DNA of 64,000 nt. Source: Candidatus Moraniibacteriota bacterium. GTDB lineage: Bacteria > Patescibacteriota > Minisyncoccia > Moranbacterales > UBA1568. The position numbers and the translations under genes were made by a program. The stretch is taken from NCBI GenBank assembly GCA_017983435.1, contig JAGOBM010000006.1, positions 11,921-75,920 on the forward strand. Reading direction: 5' to 3'. Shown here one piece after another: positions 2,362 to 63,237 of the stretch (positions are counted from its first letter, which is position 1; every line of letters starts with the position of its first letter). The notes beneath the pieces were generated by a model that saw nothing but the letters and a program-made list of their open reading frames with translations, was not told the origin of the DNA and ran no database searches.

Positions 2362-2502
2362 AAATATATCATCACTCAAATTATCAACAGGGACTTCCGG
2401 GCTACGAAAGCAGCTTTTTCCCTTGCTATCGCCTCGGAAGTCTCGGGCGTCAGGAAAAACCTCTTTCGCATCCCGGAAGCTACTCTCCCTCACTGCTAGA
2501 TT

Positions 2503-3710: not shown

Positions 3711-5265
<1,555 letters not shown>

Positions 5266-5501
5266 AAACAGAGGAATGCCATCCCGAAGGATGCATTCCA
5301 AATGAAAACAATTGAAAGGAAATCCGCCATCTCCCTCTGTACAAGTACAGAAGAAAGAGGACTAACCACAAAAAATTGTGATTTGTTAAACTATATATTT
5401 GGCTCGAACAGATTGTTAAGGTGCCTTTTTTGCCATTCATCCCGAAAGGAAGAAAGCAAAGAGAAACAAAAGCAATCTAAATATTTCTAGACTGCCTACC
5501 T

Positions 5502-5529: not shown

Positions 5530-5645
5530 GCCCCGACCGCAACGCTTCGCGTAGCGATGCGGGCGGGCCCCGGTCTTCATGTAATCTAGTAAACAAAAAT
5601 ACCTTAAATAAAGGATTTTATATGGATACCACCAGCAACAACCCG

Positions 5646-13659: not shown

Positions 13660-13753
13660 ATTTCAATTCCAGTAAATTAGCTGATAGAGTCTTAGCTTAT
13701 AGTCTTTAAGAAAATCCTCTATCAACTATCAGCTATTATCTAAAAACTGTTCA

Positions 13754-18778: not shown

Positions 18779-18820
18779 AACCAAAAACCTCCCGGAAATA
18801 TATCCGGAAGGTTTTTGGTT
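18779..18820 (-). terminator. rho-independent terminator after tRNA-Glu (17-bp hairpin + U-run)
   Basis: aaccaaaaacctcccgg / ccggaaggtttttggtt, one mismatch. Confidence 0.6.
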
Positions 18821-18898: not shown

Positions 18899-19008
18899 CC
18901 TTATGAACAGCTAATAGTTGATAGCTTATAGTTTATAGCTCTTTGAGAAATTCGAATACAATCCGCGACTCTAAAAAACTAACAACTATAAGCTATCAAC
19001 TGTTCACG
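18899..19008. repeat. inter-tRNA spacer forming a large AT-rich inverted repeat (gaacag...gttgatagcttatagtt / aactataagctatcaactgttc)
   Basis: Arms ~22 nt; motif tagcttatag recurs at 13702 and 14150. Confidence 0.5.
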
Positions 19009-19079: not shown

Positions 19080-19172
19080 GTACCAAGAAACAAAAAACAG
19101 TTAACAACCAACAAATAGCAGATACCCTTCATCTTACCCTGCTTCCTGTTCTTTGTTAACTGTTCCTGGGGC

Positions 19173-20571: not shown

Positions 20572-20580
20572 TTCAAAATA

Positions 20581-20619
20581 AAACTACAAAAGCACCCAGG
20601 ATGGGTGCTTTTGTAGTTT
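20581..20619 (-). terminator. rho-independent terminator after tRNA-Tyr (perfect 18-bp hairpin + U-rich tract)
   Basis: aaactacaaaagcaccca gga tgggtgcttttgtagttt. Confidence 0.65.
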
Positions 20620-20625
20620 ATACTG

Positions 20626-20709
20626 TGGGTAGGGAGGGATTCGAACCCCCGTAGCCCGTAGGGCGTCAGATTTACAGTCTGATGCATTTGACCGCTCTGC
20701 TACCTACCC
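20626..20709 (-). tRNA. tRNA-Tyr (anticodon GTA), long variable arm
   Basis: rc: GGGTAGGTAGCAGAGCGGTCAAATGCATCAGACTGTAAATCTGACGCCCTACGGGCTACGGGGGTTCGAATCCCTCCCTACCCA. Confidence 0.85.
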
Positions 20710-20791
20710 ATTTTCGTAAAATAACCAAGCACCGAAATCCAATCACCAAATAAATCTCAATTCTCAATTATTCAAAATCCAAATAGGTTTG

Positions 20792-20853
20792 TTTGGAATT
20801 TGAAATTTGGTTATTGGAATTTATTTGGAAATTGAAATTTGGTTATTGGAAAT
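20792..20853. repeat. two tandem ~30-nt AT-rich direct repeats (tttggaaWttgaaatttggttattggaaWt) between tRNA-Thr(TGT) and tRNA-Tyr
   Basis: Units at 20792-20820 and 20824-20853; only two copies, no spacer structure. Confidence 0.7.
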
Positions 20854-25887: not shown

Positions 25888-25930
25888 AAAAAAAACAAAA
25901 CCCCCTTTCGGGGGATTTTGTTTTTCTTTT
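25888..25930. terminator. bidirectional rho-independent terminator (aaaaccccc tttc gggggatttt)
   Basis: A-run / GC hairpin / T-run between prmC (+) and the minus-strand micro-protein. Confidence 0.6.
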
Positions 25931-27292: not shown

Positions 27293-27330
27293 TCTGTATT
27301 TCAGTCCTTCTCCGTTCTTTACCGTATGAC

Positions 27331-27368
27331 AGCAAAACCCCGGAAACTTCCGGGGTTTTGCTTTTTTT
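27331..27368 (+). terminator. rho-independent terminator (caaaaccccgg aaactt ccggggttttg + T7)
   Basis: Perfect 11-bp stem plus T-run. Confidence 0.65.
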
Positions 27369-34664: not shown

Positions 34665-35143
34665 AGAAGATTTGAGTTATTGTTTGGTTTCAGTTTACGC
34701 TGTTTTGAGTGAGGGAGCAAGATGCGAAAGTAGATTTTTTCTGTGATTAAGAATTTCTTCCTGCTGGTTTCCCAGACCAGAAAATGCAATCCAGAGAATG
34801 CAGACCCCCACCGACCCAGCCAGCAAATTTTTTCCTCACTATCGGTTTAAAGCACCTCGGGCTTCAGAAAAAATCTCTGGCTGGGTCGGCGAGGGGGTGG
34901 TATTACAACGTCACAGTGAAATCGATTCCTAGACCAGAACAAAAGCACAAAGAACCATCAGCCGATCTCACTTCAGGGCGCGGCTTGAAAGCATTTCAGC
35001 ATGGTTTCCGTCAGGATGACGGAATGAAATGCTTTCACGTCAGTCAAAAGCTCGCAGGGATTTTGACGGCGCCATGAGGTGAGTCGGTTGGTGGTTCTCC
35101 GATGGGAATGCGGTTTTTTTTATAATTGAAGGGAAATTTTATC

Positions 35144-37630
35144 TCATATTTTTTCAGCCAGTTTGACCCGATCCATGATTTCACGGTTGACGATAGTCGC
35201 GTCGCGACCGAACCGCAACCGGGACAGCTCTTTCAGGGCATTGGCGATTTCCTGACTGCCCCGCGTCGGCGGATAGGTCTTCATGTTGAATGGCTTGGTC
35301 AGTTCTCCATTCATCAACAGGCGAGCGAAACAATTGTAATTATCCACGTTCATCAGGTCGTTCGGACTGAAGACCGGTGAGAACTGCTTCTCGAGAAATT
35401 CTGCATCTTCCGGACCGACTCGAAACGCCACCATCGAACCGACATTGCCGAAGACCGCCTTGGATATCTCCTCCTTGAGCTGCGCGATGAATTGGTGCGC
35501 CAAGACCAGACAGAGGCGATACTTGCGCGCTTCCGAGAGAATCTGCGCGATCGAATTCGTCGTGACATTCTGAAACTCATCCAGATAGAGATAGAAATCC
35601 TGCCGCTCATCTTCCGGAGTATCGACGCGAGACAGCGCTGCCATGAGCAACCGACCGACGATAACCATACCGAGCAACTTGGCGTTGATCTCCCCGATCT
35701 TGCCTTTGGAAAGATTGACGAGGAAAATCTTCTTTCCATCCATGATATCTCGGAAATCGAGGGCGCTCTTCTGCTGCGCGATAATCGGACGCATGATGTC
35801 GTTCGAGATGAAGGTCGTCAGCTTGGACGTGATATAGGGGACCATATTGGCCAGCGCTGCCTCGCCACCAGCCTTCTCGGCTTCCTTGAGCCAGAAATCA
35901 CGGACAATCGGATTCGTGCAGTGTTCGAGCTTGTACCGGCGAAACTCCTCATCCGCCAGCACCTTGGATATCTCCATAAGCGTCGAACCGCTTTCCGGAT
36001 GTTCCATGATCAAGAGCATCGCATTGCGCATATACTGCTCGAACATCGGCCCTCCGGTCGATTTGAGATCATACAACTGATCGAAGATACCGATCATCTC
36101 ATTGATGATGAAAGTCTTCTGCTCGGGATGCGCCGGGTCGTATTCGAGCATATTGATACCGATCGGTCGGGCGATATCTGATGGATCAAACACAATGACA
36201 TCCTCCGCCCGCTCCTTCGGAATCGCCGTCAGGATATCCTCGATCGCATCACCATGCGGATCGATAAAGCAGAAACCCTTGCCAGCTGCCGCATCTTTCT
36301 TCGCCATTTCCTGGAGAAAATTCGATTTTCCAGCCCCAGTCTGACCGATCGCATAGAGATGACGACGACGATCATTGTCCGTGATGCGTATCTCTGATTT
36401 GGCTCCACGATAGTCATTAAATCCGAGCAAGAGTCCCTCGGTCGGGATATTGATCGGAGGAGCAGCCGCACCGGATTTGAGCCATTTGATCTTCGGTGTT
36501 TCCGTCGTAGAAATCGGGAAATGGAAGATGCTTGCGATTTCCTCGATACCGAGCACACAAGCATGCTCTTCGTCGAAGGTCCGGAAGATATATTCGAAGA
36601 CCGCCCGCTTTTCTTTCACCCGGCGTAGTACTTTGAATGTATTAACATCCGGATTTTCAAATTGTCCGAACGCGTTTTCCATCTGAGAGAGTATCTCTTC
36701 GGCCCGAGCGTGATCCGCTGCTGTCGCGATCAGGCGGATATTGACCCGGAACGCTGCCTTGCCTGATTTGGCCTCGATAGCTTTTACCAGATCTTGCTCT
36801 TCCGGAGTCAGCGAGATCGGCTTTGGCTCATTCGCTTCCGGATGCGTCTGGGATGACAAGACACTCACCATCCCCTTCCCGAGCTCTTTACCGGCATCCT
36901 GCAAGAGAGACGAGTCGCTATGCGCATCCTTGAGCCGCTGCCCACCCTGCATCCTCTGGGCGATCGACTTGCCTGCGGACCGCCAATCGCTCGGAGCGCC
37001 TGAGAGCACCACCTGGATCGCCGCGCCTTCGGCTTCCGTCTTGAGCCGGGAGAGCGCGTTGGAAATCTCATTGAGCGGATCAGCACCGATCGAACGATAG
37101 GTGCGGAGCGGGAGAGCGTAGTTGTTCCGGAGACCGATCGTCGCGACCGCCGTCGCACTGTCTGGGGAAAAGACGGTGTAGTCGGATACCTTTTCGATCA
37201 CCGCGTTCGGGAAAAAACTATGTATCTGCTTCTCGATGCTTTCGCGGAAACGCTTCGGGACGGAAATATAGAAAAATATCTCCTCGCTGTTCGAGGGATT
37301 GGCGATTTCAAACACGATATTGGGCGCCGTATAGAACCACTGCCTCCAAGAACCCGTCTTCCATTTGATCGTCGCGACTGATGAGAGCAGTTGTTCCATC
37401 GCTGCCACTTCGTCCCGCCAGGCTTCGGCATCATGATTCTGTGCTTCTCCGGATGAACGGTTCGGACGGGATACTTTGACGACCTCCAGATCAGCATTCA
37501 TCGACTGGCTGACAGCGATACGAAATCGGAGCACGCTCCTGACTATAAGGAAGACACCCGAAAAAAACGCCAACAGACCAAAAACACCCAAGAGCGGTGC
37601 CAGGACTATATTCCAATCGAAACCCGACAT
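35144..37630 (-). CDS. membrane-anchored FtsK/HerA-superfamily P-loop ATPase (VirB4/VirD4/DUF87-like secretion or DNA-translocation ATPase)
   Basis: N-terminal TM (IVLAPLLGVFGLLAFFSGVF). Walker A AIGQTGAGKS around aa 440, then FIDPHGD, Walker B FYLYLDEFQNV, and ARKYRLCLVLAHQF (HerA/VirB4-type C-terminal motif). Confidence 0.65.
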   Translation of the reverse strand: MSGFDWNIVLAPLLGVFGLLAFFSGVFLIVRSVLRFRIAVSQSMNADLEVVKVSRPNRSSGEAQNHDAEAWRDEVAAMEQLLSSVATIKWKTGSWRQWFYTAPNIVFEIANPSNSEEIFFYISVPKRFRESIEKQIHSFFPNAVIEKVSDYTVFSPDSATAVATIGLRNNYALPLRTYRSIGADPLNEISNALSRLKTEAEGAAIQVVLSGAPSDWRSAGKSIAQRMQGGQRLKDAHSDSSLLQDAGKELGKGMVSVLSSQTHPEANEPKPISLTPEEQDLVKAIEAKSGKAAFRVNIRLIATAADHARAEEILSQMENAFGQFENPDVNTFKVLRRVKEKRAVFEYIFRTFDEEHACVLGIEEIASIFHFPISTTETPKIKWLKSGAAAPPINIPTEGLLLGFNDYRGAKSEIRITDNDRRRHLYAIGQTGAGKSNFLQEMAKKDAAAGKGFCFIDPHGDAIEDILTAIPKERAEDVIVFDPSDIARPIGINMLEYDPAHPEQKTFIINEMIGIFDQLYDLKSTGGPMFEQYMRNAMLLIMEHPESGSTLMEISKVLADEEFRRYKLEHCTNPIVRDFWLKEAEKAGGEAALANMVPYITSKLTTFISNDIMRPIIAQQKSALDFRDIMDGKKIFLVNLSKGKIGEINAKLLGMVIVGRLLMAALSRVDTPEDERQDFYLYLDEFQNVTTNSIAQILSEARKYRLCLVLAHQFIAQLKEEISKAVFGNVGSMVAFRVGPEDAEFLEKQFSPVFSPNDLMNVDNYNCFARLLMNGELTKPFNMKTYPPTRGSQEIANALKELSRLRFGRDATIVNREIMDRVKLAEKI

Positions 37631-37663
37631 AATCTGTTTTTGTTTGTTTTTTACTCTGCCTCT

Positions 37664-38107
37664 CTACTCCCGATCGATCATACCTTTCTCGACCAGTCCT
37701 TGATAGAACTTGTCTACCAACTCATCATGCATGCGATCCAACAGGTAGTAATTCTTCATCTTGCGGGCCACATTCACTCCATGCAGGACACCCTTCTGCA
37801 TAACCAGGTCGAGGAGGCGCGTCACTTGACTTTCCGTATCGCCGAGGAGAGAAAGATTGCGTGCGTCATCATGCGCATCGTCCCGCATGACAGCGCCTGC
37901 CTGCCCTGACACCAGTGCTGTTTTCTGGAGAATCTCTGATAACTTTCCTGTTTCAACTTCTCCCTTCGATTCAACCACCTGCTCCGGCACCGGTTCCGCC
38001 GAACCCGCTTCCACCTGTGGCGCAGACGTCGAACCAGACTCCGCCGAAGCAGCTTCAAACACCGCCCCAAACGTATTGTCACTGGATTTCAGATCTTCTG
38101 CGGGCAT
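37664..38107 (-). CDS. hypothetical protein (acidic N-terminus)
   Basis: ATG start; ORFan inside the operon. Confidence 0.45.
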   Translation of the reverse strand: MPAEDLKSSDNTFGAVFEAASAESGSTSAPQVEAGSAEPVPEQVVESKGEVETGKLSEILQKTALVSGQAGAVMRDDAHDDARNLSLLGDTESQVTRLLDLVMQKGVLHGVNVARKMKNYYLLDRMHDELVDKFYQGLVEKGMIDRE

Positions 38108-38118
38108 ACGATTCCGTA

Positions 38119-38442
38119 TCAGCTCAATTTCACTGTCTCCTTGAACTCCTTGACGATACCAGCCACAAAATCATCGTACTCGGGGATGCGCGAACGGAAA
38201 AATTGCGCTATATCGTCATCCGAAGGCGATTTCTCGAGCAGCGCTTCATATTCCCCTATGCCTGACTCACCGATTTTCGCCATGGATTCGGCATAAATCA
38301 CCTTGATCAGCGAAGCAAACGCCATCTCGAGAGCCTCTTCCTGCTTCTCTTCCGAAAAAGCACTCAGGCCGAACTCCTGCACCAGCTGTTGTCGGATCTC
38401 TTCTCTGTCAATCATCGGCTCCGTCATACATATGCATGTCAA
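38119..38442 (-). CDS. hypothetical small acidic protein
   Basis: ORFan, tightly spaced with neighbours. Confidence 0.4.
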   Translation of the reverse strand: MTCICMTEPMIDREEIRQQLVQEFGLSAFSEEKQEEALEMAFASLIKVIYAESMAKIGESGIGEYEALLEKSPSDDDIAQFFRSRIPEYDDFVAGIVKEFKETVKLS

Positions 38443-38451
38443 AAAATTATA

Positions 38452-41043
38452 TTATCGACTGGTCGAAAAAATCCCATATATTGTCCCTTGAGTCGCTCTC
38501 GGGGCTGCCTGCTTCAGGTACTCCTCTACCGTGCCATTGACATTGCCTCGGAAGAATTCCGTCATCGAGACGACACCGGCCTTCTGTAGGCTCGCAGCGA
38601 ATTCATAAAAATTGCGATACTGCTCCGGAGCAAGGCTACTACGATACCCCATCACCTTTCCGGCAGCGAAAGCCTGCGTGTCCCGGATGACATCCGCGAC
38701 CTTCACCCGCATGATTTCGGACCGATTCAGCACCCAATCCTGACCAGGAGTCGGACTCTCAACCCGGAAAATCTGCGCATACCAATCATCCACACGAGGA
38801 GCATGTTCTGAAACCGCGACTTCCTCCGCTAGAGGAGTCACCTCTGGCCTGGTTTCGGCAATCACCGACTCCACTGCCGGCGTATCGATCGAGATCGGTG
38901 ATGTTGCCAATGTTGCATCCATCTTGGCCAGAGCCGCCTCTCGTACCGCATCGACATTCGATACCGGCGCGTGAGGTGCGACGGTCTCCACGAAGCGCCG
39001 CGCATCGGCCAGGTATCGATCCAGATCCTGTGTCCCGAAGAGACGGGTGAAGTCAATACGATCACCCGGACGCAACTGCGCGATATCACCACTCGAAATA
39101 CCGAGCGCCCGGACCTCAGCCGGAGACAATGAAGCTGCTTTGTCCTTGATCGCATCTATCAGGGCATGCGACTGTCCGACATTCAATCCTAGTCCGCCGG
39201 TCCGCTCCTGCACGAGATTCCAGAAGTTATCACCCGCCTTCACATTGGCAGTCTTGAGAAAATTCGAATATTCGGATGAGAAGCCTTCTATGGACGCATG
39301 CGGCACTTCCGTTATCCGCTCAGGAACTGCAGATACCGCTGGCTGTGTTTCTACTGGTGTTGCCACCGGATCGGCCACACTGGCTTCTGGCAAGAGCGTC
39401 TCATCAGTCGCATCAGGGAGAGCGGCCAGACCGAATGATCGATCAAGCCATCCGATACCGGTCCCATGATCCATCACGTGTTGCACACCCTCACCGATCC
39501 AGCCCTTCCCGACGACGAGGCCAAGCGCGGCGCCCGACGCACCGATCAGGAGTTTCCGACGCTTCATCGCATCCACTCGTTCACGGAAAAGTCCGGAAGC
39601 TTCTTTGCCTGTTTGGAGATGCTGTTCGACAAACAGTTTCACTGATGCTTCAAAATCCCGCGCTTTCTCAGCCCGAGTCTCATCATCCATATCCATCATC
39701 AGGTCGGCATTACCTGTCTGCGCTTCTATCTCCGCAATCTTATCAAAAATTTTCTGTCCCGCCTCCTCAGCCTGCGCTCGGGCCCGCGCATCAGCCCGTC
39801 CTTCGAGCGCCGTATCGAGCGTCACCGAAAGTGAGCCTCCTGCCAAGACCGCCCGAGCAAAAGCCGCCCCGAAAGCCGCCGCGCCTCCAGCCGCCGTCAC
39901 TCCCACGAGAGCGCCACCGATCGTCAATTTCTCATACCATTTGAGCCCATTATACGCATGCATCCACTGAGAAAGCTTCTCTCCGATACGCCCATGAAGC
40001 GAGCTCGATTTTCGTTTTATTTCTGCCTGCTTGCGTGCCTCGTATAATTGCACACGGCCTTCGAATTCACCGAAGTTCAGCACCTCCGCCATTTCCCGCT
40101 TGTATGCATCACTTCGATCACCGGCATATTTCCGTTCGATACGTGCTAGACGCTCCTGAGTGAATCGGAGACGAGCCTCCTCATAGCGCGTGCGGGCATC
40201 ATCCACGTCTTCCAGAGGCACTTCCTGCTTGAGTCCGAACAGATTCCGCAGACGCAGCAGTGTGCTTGATTTTTCAAGGTCAACCGAGACGTAGCGCTCT
40301 CGAGCGATAGCCAGATCATTCTTCAGTGTTTCCAGCAAAGCATCCGCCTGGACCGTCTCTTCCGGAATCACAGCGGCTTCTTTCGGTAGACGGCCGTATT
40401 TGCGCAACACTTCCGCTTCCGCGGCTGATCCCGGCGCTGCGAATGCAGCCTCTTGCTGTTGTTTCAAATCTGCATCCTCAGCATCCAGCTCGGCAGGCTC
40501 CGCCATACTCGCCTTGATAAGTTCCGAAGCCCGGGCCTCTTCCTCCGGAGAGAGCGGCGTCGGCAACGGCTGGATCGGCAAAGTCGGATCGATTTCCACC
40601 CCCGCGCCATCTGTGCGCTCTCGTACGCCGAATCCCTTCAGGACTTCCTTCGGAAATTCTCCAGCTATCTCTTGAGCTGAATACTCTTCGGCGGGTGCGG
40701 AAGGCAGAGGAGGATGTGTCGTATCTTCCTTGATCAGATGCTGCACGGTCTCCATATCAGGATTCGTCAACGCACGACCATCCGGCGTCACGATAAAATC
40801 CTCAACCCCATCCAGAACAGGGTCCAGCGGCTCTACTACCGGCTGTTCGGCACGTTTCGTATTGGTTCGCCGGCGTCGGCGCAAGACCTGAGGAGCCGGC
40901 TCAGTCATAGGCTCTGCTGCCAAAGACAAAGTCGGTTCGATCTTCTCAGTCGACTTATCTGGCAACTGCGACAAATCCTCAGCCAGCTTATCGCCCATGC
41001 TGCGGATCCGTGCCAATACTGCCTCCATCTTCTTGTCCTCCAT
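38452..41043 (-). CDS. 863-aa membrane protein: acidic/coiled-coil N-terminus, two glycine-zipper TM segments, C-terminal LysM-like motif (tentative)
   Basis: GGALVGVTAAGGAAAFGAAFARAVLAGG and LLIGASGAALGLVVG hydrophobic Gly-zippers; VKAGDNFWNLVQE...GDIAQLRPGDRIDF LysM-like. Confidence 0.55.
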   Translation of the reverse strand: MEDKKMEAVLARIRSMGDKLAEDLSQLPDKSTEKIEPTLSLAAEPMTEPAPQVLRRRRRTNTKRAEQPVVEPLDPVLDGVEDFIVTPDGRALTNPDMETVQHLIKEDTTHPPLPSAPAEEYSAQEIAGEFPKEVLKGFGVRERTDGAGVEIDPTLPIQPLPTPLSPEEEARASELIKASMAEPAELDAEDADLKQQQEAAFAAPGSAAEAEVLRKYGRLPKEAAVIPEETVQADALLETLKNDLAIARERYVSVDLEKSSTLLRLRNLFGLKQEVPLEDVDDARTRYEEARLRFTQERLARIERKYAGDRSDAYKREMAEVLNFGEFEGRVQLYEARKQAEIKRKSSSLHGRIGEKLSQWMHAYNGLKWYEKLTIGGALVGVTAAGGAAAFGAAFARAVLAGGSLSVTLDTALEGRADARARAQAEEAGQKIFDKIAEIEAQTGNADLMMDMDDETRAEKARDFEASVKLFVEQHLQTGKEASGLFRERVDAMKRRKLLIGASGAALGLVVGKGWIGEGVQHVMDHGTGIGWLDRSFGLAALPDATDETLLPEASVADPVATPVETQPAVSAVPERITEVPHASIEGFSSEYSNFLKTANVKAGDNFWNLVQERTGGLGLNVGQSHALIDAIKDKAASLSPAEVRALGISSGDIAQLRPGDRIDFTRLFGTQDLDRYLADARRFVETVAPHAPVSNVDAVREAALAKMDATLATSPISIDTPAVESVIAETRPEVTPLAEEVAVSEHAPRVDDWYAQIFRVESPTPGQDWVLNRSEIMRVKVADVIRDTQAFAAGKVMGYRSSLAPEQYRNFYEFAASLQKAGVVSMTEFFRGNVNGTVEEYLKQAAPRATQGTIYGIFSTSR

Positions 41044-41064
41044 ACATCGTCAGATTATATCATC

Positions 41065-42204
41065 TCATTGTAGAACATTTTTTGCAATCCGCTGCATCAC
41101 GATATCGATAGCTCGATCGCGATCAGCGGCCAGCGCGATATTGCCGACCCGTGACAACACCTGGTCAAGATAGGTCGAGACGCAAACGCGCTGCGATGCC
41201 TGATCAAACCCATCCCCCATCTCTTCCGAGAGCAGCTCTACGAGTTGCGCTGCCGAATCCGCCATGATATCGAGGAGCATATCGGCATCCTTGGCACATC
41301 CGGCCAAAAGCTGCTGCCACTCCTCCGACCTATCTATCGCTTCAACCGAAACTGAGACATTCTCTTCGAGGCCAGTCGCTTCTGTCACTGCTCGATCAGC
41401 GCTCTGGGAAAATCTCCCGACATTCTTCGGGTCATTCCGATCAAAAACCAGCGTGCCGACATAATTCGTATCATGCGTCAGCAGCACACACGACACCGTA
41501 TCTCCTTCCACCCGCTCGATACGGTACTGGCTCCCGCCCTGCTCGGCATCTGCGATCTCGACGCCCGCTTCCATCACGAAGCCGTGCTCCACCCGAGGTG
41601 ATTCAGGCTGCGAAGCCGCTGCCGGAACCTCATCATGTTTGCGCACATCCAAATCGTCCTGCAAAACCCGCAATCTCTCGATGACCTCTTGGTCGTGTTC
41701 ACCTTCATTACCCAAACGTATGATTTCATCCAACTCGGCCAGCCAGCTATCGAGCAGCCCGGACAATCGTTTCGCTTCCTTCTTAGAAATGCGGTTATTC
41801 ATGCGTCGCACATTGAGAGTGGTGCGATATCGCTCGATCTGACCATGAGCGGCATCGATCTCATTCTGCAGCCACCCCATCATCGCCTCCAGAGGATCCA
41901 CCGCCAAAGACTCGGGGTCAGAAGGAACTACTAGGGTCACCTCTCTTTCGTGGTAAGGATCAGCCGACACAATATCAACATCCTCATGCTTCGGACTGGA
42001 CGCCGCTTCATGTATCACCGGATGATCCGGCCGCTTTGACTGGCTCTTCTTCGCCGGTATCGAAGTATCGGCACGCTCCCAGCGTTCCTGATCACGGCGC
42101 AGCTGCGTCAAACCAGCCGCCGGAGCTGCTGTTTTTTTCGATTTCTTCGGTTTTGCAGCAACATGATCGACTTCCAATCCTGCAGCCTGCATATTCTCAG
42201 TCAT
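41065..42204 (-). CDS. hypothetical acidic coiled-coil protein
   Basis: ATG start 22 nt upstream of the next gene; no TM; no motif. Confidence 0.5.
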   Translation of the reverse strand: MTENMQAAGLEVDHVAAKPKKSKKTAAPAAGLTQLRRDQERWERADTSIPAKKSQSKRPDHPVIHEAASSPKHEDVDIVSADPYHEREVTLVVPSDPESLAVDPLEAMMGWLQNEIDAAHGQIERYRTTLNVRRMNNRISKKEAKRLSGLLDSWLAELDEIIRLGNEGEHDQEVIERLRVLQDDLDVRKHDEVPAAASQPESPRVEHGFVMEAGVEIADAEQGGSQYRIERVEGDTVSCVLLTHDTNYVGTLVFDRNDPKNVGRFSQSADRAVTEATGLEENVSVSVEAIDRSEEWQQLLAGCAKDADMLLDIMADSAAQLVELLSEEMGDGFDQASQRVCVSTYLDQVLSRVGNIALAADRDRAIDIVMQRIAKNVLQ

Positions 42205-42224
42205 ATTCCCTCCAGGAAAACCCC

Positions 42225-42629
42225 TTATGCTTCAGATTTACCACGTTTTTCGAGACTATATCCTCCCTCGGCAGCAAAACGCTCAAATTCTTCTACTGAT
42301 CCAAAAAACCACTCCCCGTCCGGCGCATTTTCTTTCCTCTTGAAAAAAGCGAGGATCCGATTCGGTGAAAGCGGTTTCGGATCGAGATTGGCATCCGTAC
42401 GGAAACGAATACGCACGCTCCCGATCGGCGTAATCTGATCAACGCGAAACGAATATTCTCCATTCGTCCAAACGTCCGCGATTTGCACTCTCTTTTGATC
42501 TGGTTCAGCGGCATCGGCGGGTACCGGCGACGGAACTGCCGCATCTTCTTTCGGCGCTTCCGGAATCGGTACTTCTACCGGGACAGCGGCTGCTATCTTT
42601 TCCTCTGACGGAACGCGTATCTCATCCAT
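42225..42629 (-). CDS. hypothetical protein (Pro/Ala-rich N-terminus), first gene of the minus-strand operon
   Basis: ATG start; divergent promoter region upstream. Confidence 0.45.
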   Translation of the reverse strand: MDEIRVPSEEKIAAAVPVEVPIPEAPKEDAAVPSPVPADAAEPDQKRVQIADVWTNGEYSFRVDQITPIGSVRIRFRTDANLDPKPLSPNRILAFFKRKENAPDGEWFFGSVEEFERFAAEGGYSLEKRGKSEA

Positions 42630-46344: not shown

Positions 46345-46361
46345 CCGTCCTCCCTCTTAGC

Positions 46362-46404
46362 AAACATCCGCCCGCGGAAATTTTCCAGGGCGGATGTTTT
46401 TGTA
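46362..46404. terminator. rho-independent terminator (aaacatccgccc ... gggcggatgttt + TTTGT)
   Basis: 12-bp perfect stem after the second GT-C gene. Confidence 0.6.
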
Positions 46405-50588: not shown

Positions 50589-50669
50589 AACAAACAACTT
50601 ATGACTTATGACGATTCACCCCCGTTTCGTATTTTTTGTTGTAAGTCATGAGTCATCAGTTGTCAGTGG

Positions 50670-51680
50670 CTACTTCGCGAGCATGATACTCCGCTTGTAG
50701 ACATCGAGATTCTCGAGCACGATACCGGTTCCCTTGGCGACGCAGAACGCCGGATTGTCAGCAACATAGCACGGGACACCGATAGTCTTGGCGATCAACT
50801 GATCCAGATAGCGGAGCTGAGCGGTGCCACCCGAGAGCACCATCCCCTTATCCATGATATCGGCCGCCAGTTCCGGCGGGGTCTCCTGAAGCACCTGCTT
50901 GATCACATTGATGATTTCCCGCAGCTCATCCTGTATCGCTTCCGTCACCTCGTTCGACGAGACATTGACCGTCCTCGGCAAACCTCCCATCAGATCGCGA
51001 CCCCGCACCTCCATGGAATCCTCCTTGACCTGCGCGATAGCCGCCCCGATCTTCATCTTCACTTCTTCGGCCGTCCGATCGCCGATCGCCAGCGAATACT
51101 TCCGCTTGATATAGTCTGAAATCGCCTGATCGATACGGTTGCCGCCGACACGAGCGCTGTGCGCCGCGACGACACCGCCGAGCGAGATAATCGCGATTTC
51201 CGAAGTCCCGCCGCCGATATTGATGATCATATTCCCCTGTGCGGTATGGATAGGGATACCAGCACCGATCGCCGCGAGTATCGGCTCCTTGACGACATAT
51301 GCCGCCTTAGCCCCCGCCTTGAGCGCCGCGTCGATGACCGCCCGCCGTTCAGTCGAGGTGATACCCGCCGGAATAGACAGGACGATTTCCGGACGAAAGA
51401 TACGAAGCCTTCCGGTGACTTTGTTGATGAAATACCGCAGCATCGCCTCAGTCACCCGATAGTCTGCAATAGCACCATCGCGCAACGGCTGCGAGGCGAC
51501 AATCGTATCCGGGGTACGCCCGAGCATCTCCTTGGCCTCGTTGCCGACCGCTAGCACTTTGTTCTCGATGAGCGACACGGCTACCACCGAAGGCTCATTG
51601 ATGACAATCCCCTTGCCCGGCACAAACACCAGTGTGTTGGCCGTACCGAGATCGATGCCGATTTTTCTGATCCAAGACAT
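50670..51680 (-). CDS. mreB: rod-shape-determining actin homolog MreB
   Basis: IGIDLGTANTLVFV phosphate-1 motif and full actin-like fold blocks. Confidence 0.9.
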   Translation of the reverse strand: MSWIRKIGIDLGTANTLVFVPGKGIVINEPSVVAVSLIENKVLAVGNEAKEMLGRTPDTIVASQPLRDGAIADYRVTEAMLRYFINKVTGRLRIFRPEIVLSIPAGITSTERRAVIDAALKAGAKAAYVVKEPILAAIGAGIPIHTAQGNMIINIGGGTSEIAIISLGGVVAAHSARVGGNRIDQAISDYIKRKYSLAIGDRTAEEVKMKIGAAIAQVKEDSMEVRGRDLMGGLPRTVNVSSNEVTEAIQDELREIINVIKQVLQETPPELAADIMDKGMVLSGGTAQLRYLDQLIAKTIGVPCYVADNPAFCVAKGTGIVLENLDVYKRSIMLAK

Positions 51681-51717
51681 AAGATTATAAAAAGAAAGCT
51701 AATCTTTGAGAGCATTC

Positions 51718-51790
51718 CAGATTTGAAAGAAGTTTTTCCGATGCCCTACACTTCCGAGCGTACAGCAAGGAAAGGCTGCTTTCAGATTTG
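51718..51790. repeat. stem-loop family copy A (12-bp stem incl. 2 G-U on plus strand; 49-nt conserved loop)
   Basis: cagatttgaaag ... ctttcagatttg; loop carries GATGCCCTACACTTCCGAGCGTACAGCAAGG core. Confidence 0.7.
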
Positions 51791-51819
51791 AAATTCTTTC
51801 TACAAAAAAACTGATACGA

Positions 51820-51908
51820 GTATCCCTGGCCGAAAAAGATGGTTTTTCTGATGCCCGAGACTTCTGAGGCGACAGCGAGGAAAAAATATCTTTTTCGGCC
51901 AGGGATAC
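51820..51908. repeat. stem-loop family copy B (perfect 21-bp stem; 47-nt conserved loop)
   Basis: gtatccctggccgaaaaagat ... atctttttcggccagggatac; loop GGTTTTTCTGATGCCCGAGACTTCTGAGGCGACAGCGAGGAAAAAAT. Confidence 0.8.
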
Positions 51909-51926
51909 AATCTAGCTTTTTTAAAG

Positions 51927-53195
51927 CTAGCAGCGTTCGACACGATGGATATCCGCTCCGAGCTTCTGGAGTCGCTCCTCGATACGCTCATAGCCGCGAT
52001 CCACCTGATAGATCTCCTCGATCGTCGTCTTCCCCTGCGCTGAGAGTGCTGCGATGATGAGTGCTGCGCCGGCCCGCAGATCGAAGCTCTTGATCGTCGT
52101 CCCCCGAAGCTTCTCTCCGCCGACGATTTCCGCCTGATGCGGATTGAGCACTTTCGCCTTTACGCCCATCTTCTCGAGCTCCGGAATATAATTGAACCGG
52201 CCTTCATAGAAATGGTCATGAATAAGTGTCTCCCCCTCCGATACGGCCGCCAGTACACCAAAAAGCGACTGCGTATCTGTCGGGATGCCCGGATAGAGTT
52301 CCGGCTTCACCTTGCCCGGAGTGACGAGCGGGGACCGAGGGAATACCCGGATCCGATTTTCATCCAGTACTTCGATACCGACGCCAAATTCGAGCAGTTT
52401 CTCGACGACAGCTTCCAGGTGCTCGATACGGGCATTGACCACCACGATATCCGAAAGTGTCGCCGCGCCGAGCACGAGAAAGGTCGCCGCTTCATTGGCA
52501 TCCGGGATGATAGCGTGTTCCGCCCCGTGGAGCGCCCCGCCTTCGATCGTGATCGTATGTGTCCCGAGTCCCGAGACTTTTGCGCCCATCTTGGCCAGAA
52601 ACATACCGAGGTCCTGCACGTGTGGTTCGGCCGCAGCCATCTTGATAATCGTCTTCCCTGGCAAGGCCGCCGCCAGCATCATCGCGTTCTCCGTCGCGGT
52701 CACCGAGAACTCCTTCAGTACCACGGTTCCCGCGACACGCTTGGTCGCATCGATACGATACTGCTTCTCGCCGTCGGAAACAATGGTCACGCCCATCTTC
52801 GCAAACGCATCGAAATGCGTATCGATGGGCCGCGCCCCGATAGAGCAGCCACCCGGATAGTAGAATTCAAACAAATCGAAACGCGCCGAGAGCGATCCGA
52901 GACAGAGTATCGACGAGCGCAGCCGCTTCACCAGATGCGCGTCCAATCGCTTCGGATCGATATCGCGAGCGGTAATCGCAACGGTCCGTTCATCCCGCCA
53001 AGCGACTTCCGCGCCCAGCCCTGCGAGGATTTCGAGCATGCGAAACACATCCTCGATACGAGGCACATTGTGAATCACGCAGGTTTCAGTCGTCAAGAGA
53101 GTGGCTGCCAAGATCGGTGTGGTCGCGTTTTTCGATCCCGAAACCGCGATTTCCCCTGAGAGAAGTTTGCCGCCTTCGATTTCAAAAACATCCAT
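51927..53195 (-). CDS. murA: UDP-N-acetylglucosamine 1-carboxyvinyltransferase
   Basis: Start set at internal ATG (MDVFEIEGGKLLSGEIAVSGSKNA); EPSP-synthase-fold blocks; the 525-aa track ORF has an implausible 103-aa Arg/Ser N-terminus. Confidence 0.85.
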   Translation of the reverse strand: MDVFEIEGGKLLSGEIAVSGSKNATTPILAATLLTTETCVIHNVPRIEDVFRMLEILAGLGAEVAWRDERTVAITARDIDPKRLDAHLVKRLRSSILCLGSLSARFDLFEFYYPGGCSIGARPIDTHFDAFAKMGVTIVSDGEKQYRIDATKRVAGTVVLKEFSVTATENAMMLAAALPGKTIIKMAAAEPHVQDLGMFLAKMGAKVSGLGTHTITIEGGALHGAEHAIIPDANEAATFLVLGAATLSDIVVVNARIEHLEAVVEKLLEFGVGIEVLDENRIRVFPRSPLVTPGKVKPELYPGIPTDTQSLFGVLAAVSEGETLIHDHFYEGRFNYIPELEKMGVKAKVLNPHQAEIVGGEKLRGTTIKSFDLRAGAALIIAALSAQGKTTIEEIYQVDRGYERIEERLQKLGADIHRVERC

Positions 53196-53305
53196 AGCCG
53201 CACGATAGACATTCGAATTATTCCGCCCGGACATACCGATACTGCAACGGGCATCCGCTTGCTGTACCTCAGGAGTATAGCGGAAAAATACCCCCTTTTC
53301 AAGCG

Positions 53306-53337
53306 ACAAAAAACGAAAAACCGACCCTGGGGGCCGG
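53306..53337 (-). terminator. rho-independent terminator after trxB
   Basis: minus-strand ccggccc cca gggtcgg then TTTTTCGTTTTTT. Confidence 0.5.
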
Positions 53338-53394
53338 CTTCGTATAGAGATGATTTCCGCCCGATGGAGCGGAAAAGATGCGGAATCGAAACCT

Positions 53395-54315
53395 CTACTC
53401 GCCCTTGCGGATAAAATCATACGCGGAAAGTGCCGCGACCACGCCATCCCCGGCCGAGATATTGTTCTGCTTATACGGAGCATCCGTGACATCACCAGTC
53501 GCAAAGATACCCAAGCGAGACGTCGCCTTGGTCCGATGATCGATCTTCACTTCGCCGCGCTCATTCAGATCGACGACTCCCCGCAAAAAATCTGAATTCG
53601 GCACCATGCCGATCTCCACGAACACTCCATCCGTCTCAATGATTTTTTCCTCGCTGGTATTGGCATCCTGATAGCGGAGACCAGCCACTTTCTCCTCGCC
53701 GAGCACTTCTTGTGTCAGTCCGAAATAGACGACCTGCACCCGCTCATCTGCGAGGATCTTCTCCTTGGTGATCGCATCGCCCTTGAGCTCGCCTGAGCGC
53801 ACCATCAGCTTGATCTCGCTCGCGTACGGCAAGAGATCTTCGACCGCCTCGAGACCGGAGTTGCCACCGCCGACCACGACGACTTTCTTGCCGCGGAAAA
53901 ACGGCGCATCGCAGGTCGAGCAATAGACGACCCCCTTGCCGCGAAACTTCTCTTCTCCCGGGACATCGAGCGACCGATGCCGTCCGCCGGAAGCGATGAT
54001 CACCGTCTTCGTCTCATACGTCTCACCGAGCGATCCGGTGACCGCATAGCCGACTGCCTGTGGGCTGACCTCCGTCACGATCTCACCGGTACGGATCTCG
54101 ATGCCCTCCTGCGCCCGCAGATGCGCTTCGAGCGACTGTGCAAGTTGCCATCCCGGGATAGAGATCGTCCCGATCCAATTCTCGATACCGGCCGAAACCG
54201 TCGACTGGCCGCCGATGCTCTCGGTGATGATCAGTGTCTTCAGCTGCTTGCGTGAGGCATAGATAGCCGCCGCTACTCCTCCCGGCCCTCCCCCGATGAC
54301 GATGATATCGTACAT
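53395..54315 (-). CDS. trxB: thioredoxin-disulfide reductase
   Basis: Start set at ATG 54315 (MYDIIVIGGGPGG FAD motif); redox-active CSTC (VVYCSTCDAPFF); NADPH motif VVGGGNSG. Confidence 0.9.
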   Translation of the reverse strand: MYDIIVIGGGPGGVAAAIYASRKQLKTLIITESIGGQSTVSAGIENWIGTISIPGWQLAQSLEAHLRAQEGIEIRTGEIVTEVSPQAVGYAVTGSLGETYETKTVIIASGGRHRSLDVPGEEKFRGKGVVYCSTCDAPFFRGKKVVVVGGGNSGLEAVEDLLPYASEIKLMVRSGELKGDAITKEKILADERVQVVYFGLTQEVLGEEKVAGLRYQDANTSEEKIIETDGVFVEIGMVPNSDFLRGVVDLNERGEVKIDHRTKATSRLGIFATGDVTDAPYKQNNISAGDGVVAALSAYDFIRKGE

Positions 54316-54340
54316 ACTCTTTTTTTTATGAAGATAAAAG

Positions 54341-55573
54341 CTAGTTTCGTCCGCGTGCCTGCATCGCCGCTGCGACCCGCTCCAACGCGAGGACATATGC
54401 GCCCTTACGCACCGTCGTATTGTACCGCTCATGCGCCGACCAGACCGCATCAAACGCCGTCTGCATCCGCTCCTTGAGCTTCTCATTGACCGAGGCTTCT
54501 GTCCAGAAGTCATTCATAGCATCCTGCACCTGCTCGAAATATGAGACGGTCACACCGCCGGCATTGGCCAAAATATCCGGAATCACGATGATACCCCGAT
54601 CAAACAGCGCGCGCTCTGCCTCGGGAGTCACCGGACCGTTGGCGACCTCGACGATCAGTTTCGCCTGGATATCTTTGGCGTTGTCGATACGGATGGCGTT
54701 TTCGAGAGCTGCCGGCACCAGGATATCACAAGGCACTGAGAGCACTGCCTCGCTCCCGAGCGTCTCGCAACCCGTACACTGAAAGAGCGACCCCGTCGTC
54801 CGCTTGTGTGCTTCGATCGCGCTGACATCGAGCCCTTCTTCGCGATAGACTGTCGACTTCGAATCAGCGATCGCGACGACCCGATACCCAGCCGCATCCA
54901 CAAGCCGGGCCAGATGCCCGCCGCCGTTGCCGAATCCCTGTATCGCCACCCGCGCACCCTCAGGCAGATGCAGCTTGGCAGCGGCATTCTCGAGTACGAA
55001 AAACGCCCCCTGCGCCGTCGCATAATCCCGGGCCAACGATCCGCCGATCACCACCGGTTTGCCGGTGATAACACCGGGCGCCTTCTCCCCGAGCAGCGCT
55101 TCATACTCGTCGAGCATCCAGCCCATGATACGAGGGTCCGTCGAGACATCCGGTGCCGGCACATCCCGGTTCTTGCCGATAAACGGAGCGAGAGCGCGAA
55201 TGTATCCGCGAGACAATGCCTGAAGCTCCCGATCGGAGAGCCCCTTCACATCGACGATCACGCCACCCTTGCCGCCACCGAGCGGCAGGCCGAGTACCGC
55301 GGTCTTCCAGGTCATCCAAGCCGAGAGCGCCATCACTTCCTCACGCGTCACACCCGGATGAAAACGGATACCTCCCTTATACGGACCGGCAGCGTCATTC
55401 CACTGTGAGCGGAACCCTGGGAATACCCGAGTGGTCCCATCATCCATCCTGACCGGAATCGAGACTTCGATGACCCGATCCGGTACCATGAGGCGCTCGA
55501 ATATATTCGCATCTATTTTGGCTATTTTCTGCGCCGATCGCAACTGCTCACGCGCGCTTTCAAGAGGATTCAT
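54341..55573 (-). CDS. gdhA: NAD(P)-dependent glutamate dehydrogenase
   Basis: KGGIRFHPGVTREEV and GLPLGGGKGG (GDH active-site lysine box). Confidence 0.9.
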   Translation of the reverse strand: MNPLESAREQLRSAQKIAKIDANIFERLMVPDRVIEVSIPVRMDDGTTRVFPGFRSQWNDAAGPYKGGIRFHPGVTREEVMALSAWMTWKTAVLGLPLGGGKGGVIVDVKGLSDRELQALSRGYIRALAPFIGKNRDVPAPDVSTDPRIMGWMLDEYEALLGEKAPGVITGKPVVIGGSLARDYATAQGAFFVLENAAAKLHLPEGARVAIQGFGNGGGHLARLVDAAGYRVVAIADSKSTVYREEGLDVSAIEAHKRTTGSLFQCTGCETLGSEAVLSVPCDILVPAALENAIRIDNAKDIQAKLIVEVANGPVTPEAERALFDRGIIVIPDILANAGGVTVSYFEQVQDAMNDFWTEASVNEKLKERMQTAFDAVWSAHERYNTTVRKGAYVLALERVAAAMQARGRN

Positions 55574-55601
55574 ATTGGCTTGTTGTCATATTTTTTAAAG
55601 C

Positions 55602-55693
55602 GTCTCTCGGGCTGCGAAAGAGGTTTTCCTTGATGCCCGAGACTTCCGAGGCGATAGCGAGAGGAAAAGCTGCTTTCGCAGCCCGGGAGAGAC
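55602..55693. repeat. stem-loop family copy C (12+7-bp stem with 2-nt bulge; 52-nt conserved loop)
   Basis: gtctctcgggctgcgaaag ... ctttcgcagccc gg gagagac; loop AGGTTTTCCTTGATGCCCGAGACTTCCGAGGCGATAGCGAGAGGAAAAGCTG. Confidence 0.8.
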
Positions 55694-55717
55694 TCCACCG
55701 AAAAAGGCTGCTTCGTT

Positions 55718-55972
55718 TTACTGCAATTTAAAAAGCGTCTTGAGATACGCCTCATCGATCTTCTTCTTGCCCTCCCACTTGCAGGCGAAATCATCTTTGA
55801 GCAGCTCGACCCCGAGCATCGCGACCGCCTCGCGCACCGCGCTCACCTGCGTGATGATATTGAGACATTCCTCATCCCCTTCGACCATTTTCCGGATACC
55901 CCGAAGCTGACCTTCGATCCGCGAGATCCGCGCCGCTATCTTTTCCCGCGCTGATTTCTGTTGCTGCGACAT
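55718..55972 (-). CDS. CsoR/RcnR/FrmR-family metal- or aldehyde-sensing transcriptional repressor
   Basis: Start at ATG 55972 (MSQQQKSAREKIAARISRIEGQLRGIRKMVE...); all-helical DUF156 pattern. Confidence 0.65.
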   Translation of the reverse strand: MSQQQKSAREKIAARISRIEGQLRGIRKMVEGDEECLNIITQVSAVREAVAMLGVELLKDDFACKWEGKKKIDEAYLKTLFKLQ

Positions 55973-63138: not shown

Positions 63139-63180
63139 ATACTCCTATTCTAAATCAAAAACACCCAGGGAGCCAGCAGC

Positions 63181-63204
63181 GAAGAAAAAAGCTGCTTTTG
63201 CAGC
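63181..63204 (-). terminator. rho-independent terminator after galT (gctgc aaaa gcagc + T-run on minus strand)
   Basis: Hairpin plus T6 between galT stop and tpiA start. Confidence 0.55.
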
Positions 63205-63237
63205 CTGATCCCTATTACAAGAGAATCCGTACACTCG

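Follow-up and report, generated by a model that had tools for sequence, protein, structure and literature searches.

We describe a family of long hairpins that is scattered between the genes of Candidatus Moranbacteria. The family is previously undescribed: a literature search on its core sequence, and on repeats of the candidate phyla radiation (CPR), Moranbacteria or Patescibacteria, found no description of it. The window analysed here is a whole 64-kb stretch of a Candidatus Moraniibacteriota genome (positions 11,921-75,920 of the forward strand of JAGOBM010000006.1, assembly GCA_017983435.1). It contains five full copies (A, B, C, D and F) and one truncated remnant (E), i.e. about one copy per 10 kb. 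The helices of these elements covary, their pairing is specific to one strand, and copies turn over between related species. We give an even chance to the reading that the family is a non-autonomous hairpin repeat, similar to REPINs (hairpins formed by two repetitive extragenic palindromic, REP, sequences) or to miniature inverted-repeat transposable elements (MITEs), of which one strand is recognised and whose resident copies are constrained.

A first-pass annotation of this DNA had described three stem-loops, A, B and C, as a three-member family. All three are present on the plus strand and each is a long hairpin, but D, F and the remnant E had been missed in the window, and at least 35 distinct copies were found across related genomes and metagenome contigs. 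Public collections (genomes, metagenomes, viral contigs, and phage and plasmid records) were scanned with two degenerate core patterns, and a covariance model built from the copies was then used to find further ones. Such a model scan had been proposed along with the three stem-loops, and it did find more copies, both in the window and in related genomes. Comparison with Rfam, proposed as well, matched no known family: Rfam 15 identified only 16S rRNA and tRNAs when the whole window was searched at the gathering threshold, and positions 51600-55800, searched at E<=10, gave only miRNA-precursor matches of 17-22 bits, versus cut-offs of 63-100.

According to RNAalifold and a hand-completed structure, the element folds into a single unbranched rod with a median length of 90 nt. 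Its outer stem, P1, consists of 16-24 bp whose sequence varies between copies, with many purines in the 5' arm (frequently ...GCGAAAGAGG) and, in many copies, a bulged G in the 3' arm. Above P1 there is a UUUUYC/GRAAAA helix, followed by a 2x1 internal loop (GA opposite A), the three-pair helix P2 (YGC/GCR), an internal loop of CC opposite YA and, finally, P3, which has five covarying pairs and is capped by a variable end loop of 4-7 nt. The conserved loop of ~45 nt reported in the first-pass annotation is therefore not a loop, as the helix continues through UUUUYC/GRAAAA, P2 and P3 up to this short cap.

P3 occurs in three flavours. The first is GAGAC/GGCGA (G-A, A-G, G-C, A-G, C-G), with the variants GAGGC/GACGA, GAGAU/AGCGA and GAGCC/GGCGA. 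The second is fully Watson-Crick (UUUGC/GCAAA, UAUGC/GCAUA, UGUGU/ACACA, UACGU/ACGUA), and the third, GCGGU/ACCGC or GAGGU/ACCGA, is found with the end loop GCUUUAA instead of UUCYGA. As P3 and the end loop come in several types, the conserved part of the element is the internal-loop region (YGA-YGC-CC / YA-GCR-AG) and not the end loop. Twelve copies, which came to light through the model or orthology alone, still carry the consensus uUUuu.cuGauGCcCgag...cgauAGc.aGg.aAAaa. Hammerhead, K-turn and box C/D readings of the CUGAUG...GA segment were considered and rejected: in the register supported by covariation the segment forms the 2x1 loop (GA/A), and there is no 3-nt bulge with tandem G-A at the CUGAUG position. 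With respect to the hammerhead and other small ribozymes, CUGAUG is present, but the rod is unbranched and no Rfam ribozyme model matches at E<=10.

Covariation was measured in 30 non-redundant copies aligned with MAFFT, an almost gap-free alignment that was not fitted to any structure. In this alignment 83.0% of the cells are in standard pairs, versus 71.4% with shuffled partners and only 42-56% when the partners are slid by 1-3 columns. Both sides change in 22 of the 31 pairs, and no more than 1 of 500 shuffles attains any of the observed measures. A second alignment, of 35 distinct copies fitted to the covariance model and therefore leaning towards structure by construction, has 89.9% of its cells paired and changes on both sides in 24 of 31 pairs. 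Over both alignments, the controls remain at 71-73% for shuffled and 40-56% for slid partners. Compensated stem substitutions, previously claimed on three copies, are thus upheld in 30-35 distinct copies against both kinds of control. In P3, G-A/A-G alternates with U-A/A-U or G-C/C-G between copies.

The pairing also differs between the two strands. Counted over all helices of 33 distinct copies, G-U/U-G combinations occur 95 times and A-C/C-A combinations 19 times, so that a strand asymmetry formerly noted for copy A alone applies to the whole family. At two positions the wobble pair prevails: of 35 copies, 25 have U-G at one and 19 have G-U at the other. The covariance model scores the sense strand at 57-99 bits and the reverse strand at 17-32 bits. 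The G-U excess together with the low reverse-strand scores points to a constraint acting on one strand, either RNA or single-stranded DNA, and not to a symmetric cruciform. The earlier guess, a structured RNA or a cruciform recognised by a protein, is thereby narrowed: the element is structured, covarying and strand-specific, whereas a cruciform, which needs both strands, is disfavoured by the G-U/A-C asymmetry.

In the window, copies A (51718-51790, plus strand) and B (51820-51908, plus strand) stand in tandem. Copy A, which is antisense to murA and mreB, has a type-2 core whose P3 is Watson-Crick (UACAC/GCGUA) apart from one A-C mismatch; its covariance-model score of 69.7 bits is the lowest among the full copies of the window if the divergent copy F is set aside. 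Copy B lies 19 nt past the murA stop codon, antisense to murA, and combines a perfect 22-bp outer stem with a type-1 core and the end loop UUCUGA (86.2 bits). Copy C (55602-55693, plus strand) also has a type-1 core (95.6 bits) and lies 25 nt past the csoR stop and 29 nt ahead of the gdhA start, antisense to both genes. The fold energies of A, B and C are -32.5, -50.4 and -55.0 kcal/mol, respectively, with z-scores of -4.8, -9.0 and -5.9 against dinucleotide-preserving shuffles.

Copy D (2393-2480, minus strand) was turned up by a scan with a 23-nt core pattern, for which 0 chance matches are expected in the window. It is a full hairpin with the type-1 core GACGCCC-GAGAC-UUCCGA-GGCGA-UAGCAAG (97.0 bits), located 23 nt past the VIT1 stop codon and 32 nt ahead of the dsbB start, sense to both. 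Copy F (34805-34895, minus strand), sense to its flanking genes, is a divergent full hairpin with GC-rich arms of 23 bp (57.2 bits, E ~1e-13). It carries the core variants GAAGCCC and UAGUGAGG and a type-3 apex (P3 GAGGU/ACCGA, end loop GCUUUAA), which is also found in the fetched loci L009:876-977, L035:851-951 and L059:963-1064. Remnant E (63178-63211, plus strand) was found by alignment with the syntenic metagenome contig L027 and comprises only the 3' part of the element (AGC-GAAGAAAAAA-GCTGCTTTTGCAGCCTGATCC), ~58 nt of 5' arm and core being deleted relative to full orthologous copies. Read on the gene (minus) strand, it is GCUGC-AAAA-GCAGC followed by U6, and it gives a terminator-like match at 63206-63189 (minus).

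Two minor observations concern these copies. Upstream of copy F, the minus-strand region 35144-42629 encodes a TraG/VirD4-like coupling protein (828 aa), a DUF5663 protein and several large proteins without Pfam matches. A 12-mer of tRNA-Tyr (20626-20709), CUGACGCCCUAC, extending from the anticodon stem into the variable arm, is shared with a composite of core variants (its first nine bases occur in copy D, and GCCCUAC in copy A); the structural context differs and the match is probably due to chance.

Copies in other genomes came from two of the collections. In the genome collection, five exact-pattern matches fell into one metagenome-assembled genome (MAG), CAZOKB01, and a looser rescan of its loci added a sixth, i.e. 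this MAG has at least six copies; outside the hairpins its loci have no DNA-level match to the window. CAZOKB01 (loci L001, L004, L005, L007 and L008) was deposited as 'uncultured Bdellovibrionales', and its copies are ~90% similar to those of the window, whose proteins NCBI lists under Candidatus Moranbacteria; either this label is wrong or the hairpin family crosses distant lineages. Three other matches in the genome collection had no hairpin and represent chance matches. The metagenome collection yielded 28 matched loci, about 21 of them with true copies. No match to the core patterns was obtained among viral contigs, phage records or plasmid records, and a phage, plasmid or viral origin was therefore dropped.

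All copies are intergenic. Pfam scans of the window and of the fetched loci identified the neighbours as unrelated housekeeping genes (murA, mreB, csoR, gdhA, VIT1, dsbB, holA, rpsT, ruvA, uvrB, argS, tpiA and galT). Most copies begin 0-25 nt past the stop codon of the upstream gene, while the distance to the following start codon is more variable. With respect to co-directional neighbours, 12 copies across the loci are antisense and 7 are sense; of the copies in the window, D and F are sense and the other four antisense. The plus-strand transcript antisense to the flanking genes, which had been suggested from A, B and C, is therefore not a property of the family. The same 12 to 7 distribution rules out that orientation is tied to transcription. 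A tie to replication is ruled out as well, because the GC skew is negative throughout the window, which indicates one replication direction, and copies are found on both strands. Simple scans detected no sigma-70-like promoter upstream of the copies and no stem with a U-tract, in either orientation, at the full copies A/B, C and D; among the window copies a terminator-like score was obtained for remnant E only.

Orthologous spacers were compared in four relatives, which were obtained from exact-protein look-ups. By gene identity the closest of them is the L043-type species (hereafter the sister species), with third codon positions 74-82% identical to those of the window; the L055-type and L051-type species are more distant (57-70%). 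In the murA-mreB spacer, as aligned, the window is identical to JAGOBI010000004.1 of assembly GCA_017983395.1. Orthologs of B and C are present in the murA-mreB and csoR-gdhA spacers of the more distant L055 species, whereas the close sister has neither of them, nor A, and carries an unrelated palindromic repeat of ~130 nt in the same two spacers instead. This repeat (L043:4021-4154 in csoR-gdhA and L043:8031-8169 in murA-mreB) is an imperfect palindrome with A/C-rich and G/T-rich arms, e.g. CACAAAAACCAAACAAAACAC ... GTTTGGTTTTTGTG. In the L051 species the csoR-gdhA spacer is empty (40 nt) and the VIT1-dsbB spacer contains a type-3 copy in the orientation opposite to D. The spacer of copy F is occupied in the sister by two different copies with other arms and another core type.

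Decay is seen at the same loci. The element at the position of E is full in L027 (L027:1714-1812) and in the sister (L064:1178-1278), degenerate in the L055 species and cut to its 3' third in the window. Copy A is degenerate in L055, with an internal deletion, and further truncated or degenerate copies occur in L066 and at L029:261-357. Taken as a whole, these comparisons show that gain, loss, inversion or replacement, and decay all occur on the timescale of species divergence. An insertion of the core into existing terminator hairpins was considered and found unsupported, since the only half site, E, is a deletion derivative that still contains core bases; no true empty site with the same stem was found among the spacers compared.

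Where copies are retained, they are well conserved. The L055 orthologs of B (L055:7970-8070) and C (L055:3820-3921) are 87.6% and 86.7% identical to the window copies, versus 63-70% at third codon positions, and copy D is 95.5% identical in the sister, versus 77-82%. The changes that did occur in copy B include, in P1, two double changes of G-C to A-U and a change of C-G to U-G, and, in P3, a swap of A-G to G-A. Copy C shows complementary changes in both arms, and the full orthologs of E differ in P3 by A-U to G-U and U-A to C-G. In these alignments retained copies (87-96% identical) are shown to change more slowly than synonymous sites (third positions 63-82% identical) while keeping their pairing, which suggests that resident copies are not simply dead DNA. 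Beside the C ortholog, L055:3922-3975 contains an extra 27-nt fragment identical to the 5' arm of window copy C, which suggests an earlier tandem pair or a partial duplication of the arm.

The dispersal to many unrelated spacers in several genomes implies a mechanism, past or present, by which the element is copied. The first-pass annotation had named terminal inverted repeats and target-site duplications as the marks of a purely mobile DNA element. Presence and absence, inversion, replacement and decay at orthologous spacers do point to mobility, while neither of the two marks was found. Being non-coding, intergenic, randomly oriented, subject to turnover, free of target-site duplications and constrained on one strand, the family fits a REPIN/MITE-like repeat. 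Like REPINs or MITEs, it would spread non-autonomously. A protein specified by another part of the genome would recognise the sense strand, folded and bearing the conserved apical domain, either as single-stranded DNA or as a transcript. Once inserted, a copy might be kept under structural constraint because a stable hairpin at the 3' end of a gene is useful or at least harmless, with mRNA 3'-end protection, insulation or back-up termination as possible roles. If such a hairpin were useful in either orientation, this would explain why the sister species retains some hairpin repeat in the same places.

The likeness to REP sequences and REPINs lies in a high copy number, the non-coding and extragenic location downstream of genes, both orientations, a size of ~100 nt, long hairpins, the lack of target-site duplications, a structural constraint on a single strand, and lineage-specific families that turn over between relatives. 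However, REPINs conserve the REP sequence at both ends and the loop least, whereas here the apical domain is the most conserved part and the outer arms differ. Moreover, the GTAG/CGTC tag of those elements is absent, the host is a CPR bacterium, and Pfam found no gene for a REP-associated tyrosine (Y1) transposase (RAYT) in the window or in the fetched loci. Bacterial MITEs able to form long hairpins as RNA (Correia/NEMIS, ERIC, RUP, BOX, RPE) are likewise small, non-autonomous, dispersed, intergenic and often decayed. In contrast to the present family, classical MITEs are bounded by conserved terminal inverted repeats and by target-site duplications (e.g. TA), and their stems gather uncompensated mutations, while the stems described here covary. 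The earlier remark that the architecture is unlike that of REP elements or classical MITEs was correct: the apex is conserved most, the ends are not conserved and a target-site duplication is absent.

Integron attC sites offer another parallel, as they are recognised as a folded single strand, are strand-specific, conserve structure more than sequence and follow open reading frames (ORFs). They are, on the other hand, conserved at the base of the hairpin (R''/L''-L'/R' boxes, GTTRRRY), with extrahelical bases and a variable apex, and are found in one orientation in cassette arrays beside an integrase gene (intI); the present hairpins have no base motif, are found in mixed orientation among housekeeping genes and are accompanied by no integrase in the window. 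We classify the element with the dispersed extragenic hairpin repeats, as a member with an inverted conservation pattern from a poorly studied bacterial group; it may also be a new class of structured RNA.

Several observations weigh against a REPIN/MITE-like repeat. Pfam detected no mobilising gene in the window (transposase, Y1/HUH, reverse transcriptase, integrase or Nop-domain protein), and no gene flanked by two copies, either in the window or in the fetched loci, resembles a mobilising enzyme; an ORF between two inverted copies in L014, considered as a partner gene, proved to be rpsT read on the wrong strand. Target-site duplications, conserved flanks and terminal motifs were all absent from the 34 copies compared. 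Nineteen of them have no flanking direct repeat (0 nt), 12 have one of 1 nt, two one of 2 nt and a single copy one of 3 nt, which does not exceed chance; no flanking dinucleotide is preferred, and the hairpin ends differ, with no conserved tetranucleotide. No two copies within one genome are nearly identical, so there is no sign of a recent burst. The conservation of resident copies beyond that of synonymous sites is unlike the behaviour of a purely selfish dead copy. The dominance of wobbles at fixed positions is more typical of functional RNA than of DNA hairpins, and the same is true of the UNCG-like end loop UCCG, which is common in the family.

Two further objections concern the origin and the sampling of the pattern. 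Template switching at quasi-palindromes could maintain the complementarity of the arms without selection; such correction could add to arm complementarity, but would not account for the G-U excess, the purine-purine swaps in P3 or the conservation of the core. In addition, the patterns used to retrieve most copies prescribe some of the core bases, although they never included the stems or P3; the core is nevertheless kept in the 12 copies that were obtained through the model or orthology alone.

The leading alternative, which we regard as a possible but distinctly less probable explanation, is that of a functional structured RNA made from the sense strand. Its internal loops would bind a host protein (for processing, modification or chaperoning, or RNase III with the long stem as its target); the copies would be RNA genes or cis-acting modules, and dispersal would be secondary, by duplication or in an earlier mobile phase. 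Some traits of the family are RNA-like, i.e. wobbles conserved at fixed positions, tandem G-A pairs that covary with Watson-Crick pairs in P3 and a rod with conserved asymmetric internal loops. The strand-specific pairing speaks for this alternative too, as do the conservation of orthologous copies beyond synonymous sites and their compensatory changes. Since no Rfam family matches, such an RNA would form a new class. However, the flanks of the copies are not conserved and no promoter or terminator accompanies them; the absent promoters and the mixed orientation argue against a dedicated transcript, and read-through from the neighbouring genes would yield sense RNA at only ~40% of the loci. 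In the closest relative, copies have also disappeared, been shortened or given way to an unrelated palindrome. Genomes of the CPR are ~1 Mb in size and contain very little non-coding DNA, and about one copy per 10 kb is a high density for an RNA gene in so small a genome.

A more specific version, in which the hairpins represent a novel, protein-bound class of structured RNA confined to one lineage within the CPR, kept by selection at the level of the host and replaceable by analogous families in sister species, seems to us unlikely, though worth spelling out. It would imply ~100 loci per genome, a figure extrapolated from the density in the window and an assumed genome size of ~1 Mb. Each locus would express a ~90-nt rod RNA, and the loops GA/A and CC/YA together with the tandem G-A pairs would recruit a factor that marks or processes gene boundaries.

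It is improbable that the hairpins are simply transcription terminators or 3'-end stabilisers and that the conserved apex reflects incidental shared ancestry. The position of most copies just past a stop codon would suit this function, as would a stem able to form in transcripts of both orientations, the presence of other palindromic repeats in the same spacers of the sister species and the fact that remnant E keeps exactly the GC stem and U6 on the gene strand. Intrinsic terminators are likewise stable hairpins shortly past stop codons. Nevertheless, the full copies lack a U-tract in either orientation, their stem is far longer than termination needs, and their interior is conserved and structured; termination would require neither a strand asymmetry nor a covarying apical domain of ~45 nt. 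The window also has canonical bidirectional intrinsic terminators (A-tract, GC stem, T-tract) away from the copies, at 18779-18820, 20580-20620, 25891-25925, 27328-27365 and 46360-46401, which indicates that the organism has ordinary terminators besides the hairpin repeats, and one canonical terminator adjoins a copy in L014.

We consider it quite improbable that the element acts as double-stranded DNA, i.e. as a cruciform or a protein-binding palindrome comparable to the site for integration host factor (IHF) in some bacterial interspersed mosaic elements (BIMEs) of E. coli. Palindromic arms around a conserved centre, found between genes in both orientations, are what such a site would look like. 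Against it stands the 5:1 excess of G-U over A-C, owing to which only one strand pairs well, and the covariation of P3, with non-Watson-Crick alternatives that a duplex binding site does not need.

Stem-loop units of guide RNA in a TIGR-Tas-like (box C/D-like) system are a still more doubtful explanation. The published TIGR arrays have variable palindromic stems around motif-bearing loops, and one clade of them occurs in CPR bacteria (PMC12045711). Those arrays are tandem, lie beside a tas gene and contain two variable spacers of 8-12 nt, whereas the present copies are dispersed over 2.4-63 kb of a window in which Pfam detects no Nop-domain protein, and their loop is conserved and paired with itself (P2 and P3). 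Furthermore, the complementarity of the core to 16S rRNA does not exceed that of shuffled controls. Finally, the micro-peptide (MPETSEA...) that the first-pass annotation had left open can practically be dismissed: B and C do have an ATG with an open frame and an AGAGG motif ~9 nt upstream, but D, F and many others (~10 of the 35 distinct copies) have ACG, CTG or AAG in place of the ATG, the peptide varies freely with P3 (PETSE, PFASE, PYASE, PCVSE), the substitutions preserving base pairs and not codons, and the putative ribosome-binding site is buried in the stem.

If the hairpins are mobile, as the REPIN/MITE-like reading has it, they would constitute a REPIN-like system with an inverted conservation pattern in a group in which almost nothing is known about repeats; if they act as RNA, they would be a new, strongly covarying class of motif. 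In either case, this lineage holds about one hairpin per 10 kb with its structure intact while synonymous sites approach saturation, and sister species carry hairpin repeats of different families in the corresponding spacers. This makes it a system in which to ask whether such elements are parasites, domesticated parts or both.

Other repeats were noticed in the same loci. In the galT-tpiA spacer of the sister species, a nested palindrome of ~190 nt (TTAGAGCTTATCTCAAAATTCA ... TGAATTTTGAGATAAGCTCTA; L064 ~1285-1475) lies beside the E ortholog and is absent from the window, L027 and L066. In the window, the spacer between mreB and a glycosyltransferase gene is filled by a hairpin of 17 pairs (50598-50652; CTTATGACTTATGAC ... 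GTAAGTCATGAG), which is conserved in the sister and unrelated to the hairpin family. Long inverted repeats of 12-21 pairs at 18912-19005, 19095-19165, 20746-20828 and 13676-13737, located between tRNA genes and in the ribosomal-protein cluster, may represent further hairpin-repeat families. The 16S rRNA gene of the window (3711-5270, minus strand) has no 23S or 5S rRNA gene beside it within the 64 kb, and the rRNA genes appear to be unlinked. Just upstream of the TTGACA-17-TATACT promoter that precedes this gene, a 28-nt GC-rich hairpin (ATCGCTACGCGAAGCGTTGCGGTCGGG-like; 5531-5558) matches L008:7410-7437 of the CAZOKB01 MAG exactly and may be another small repeat shared by the two genomes.

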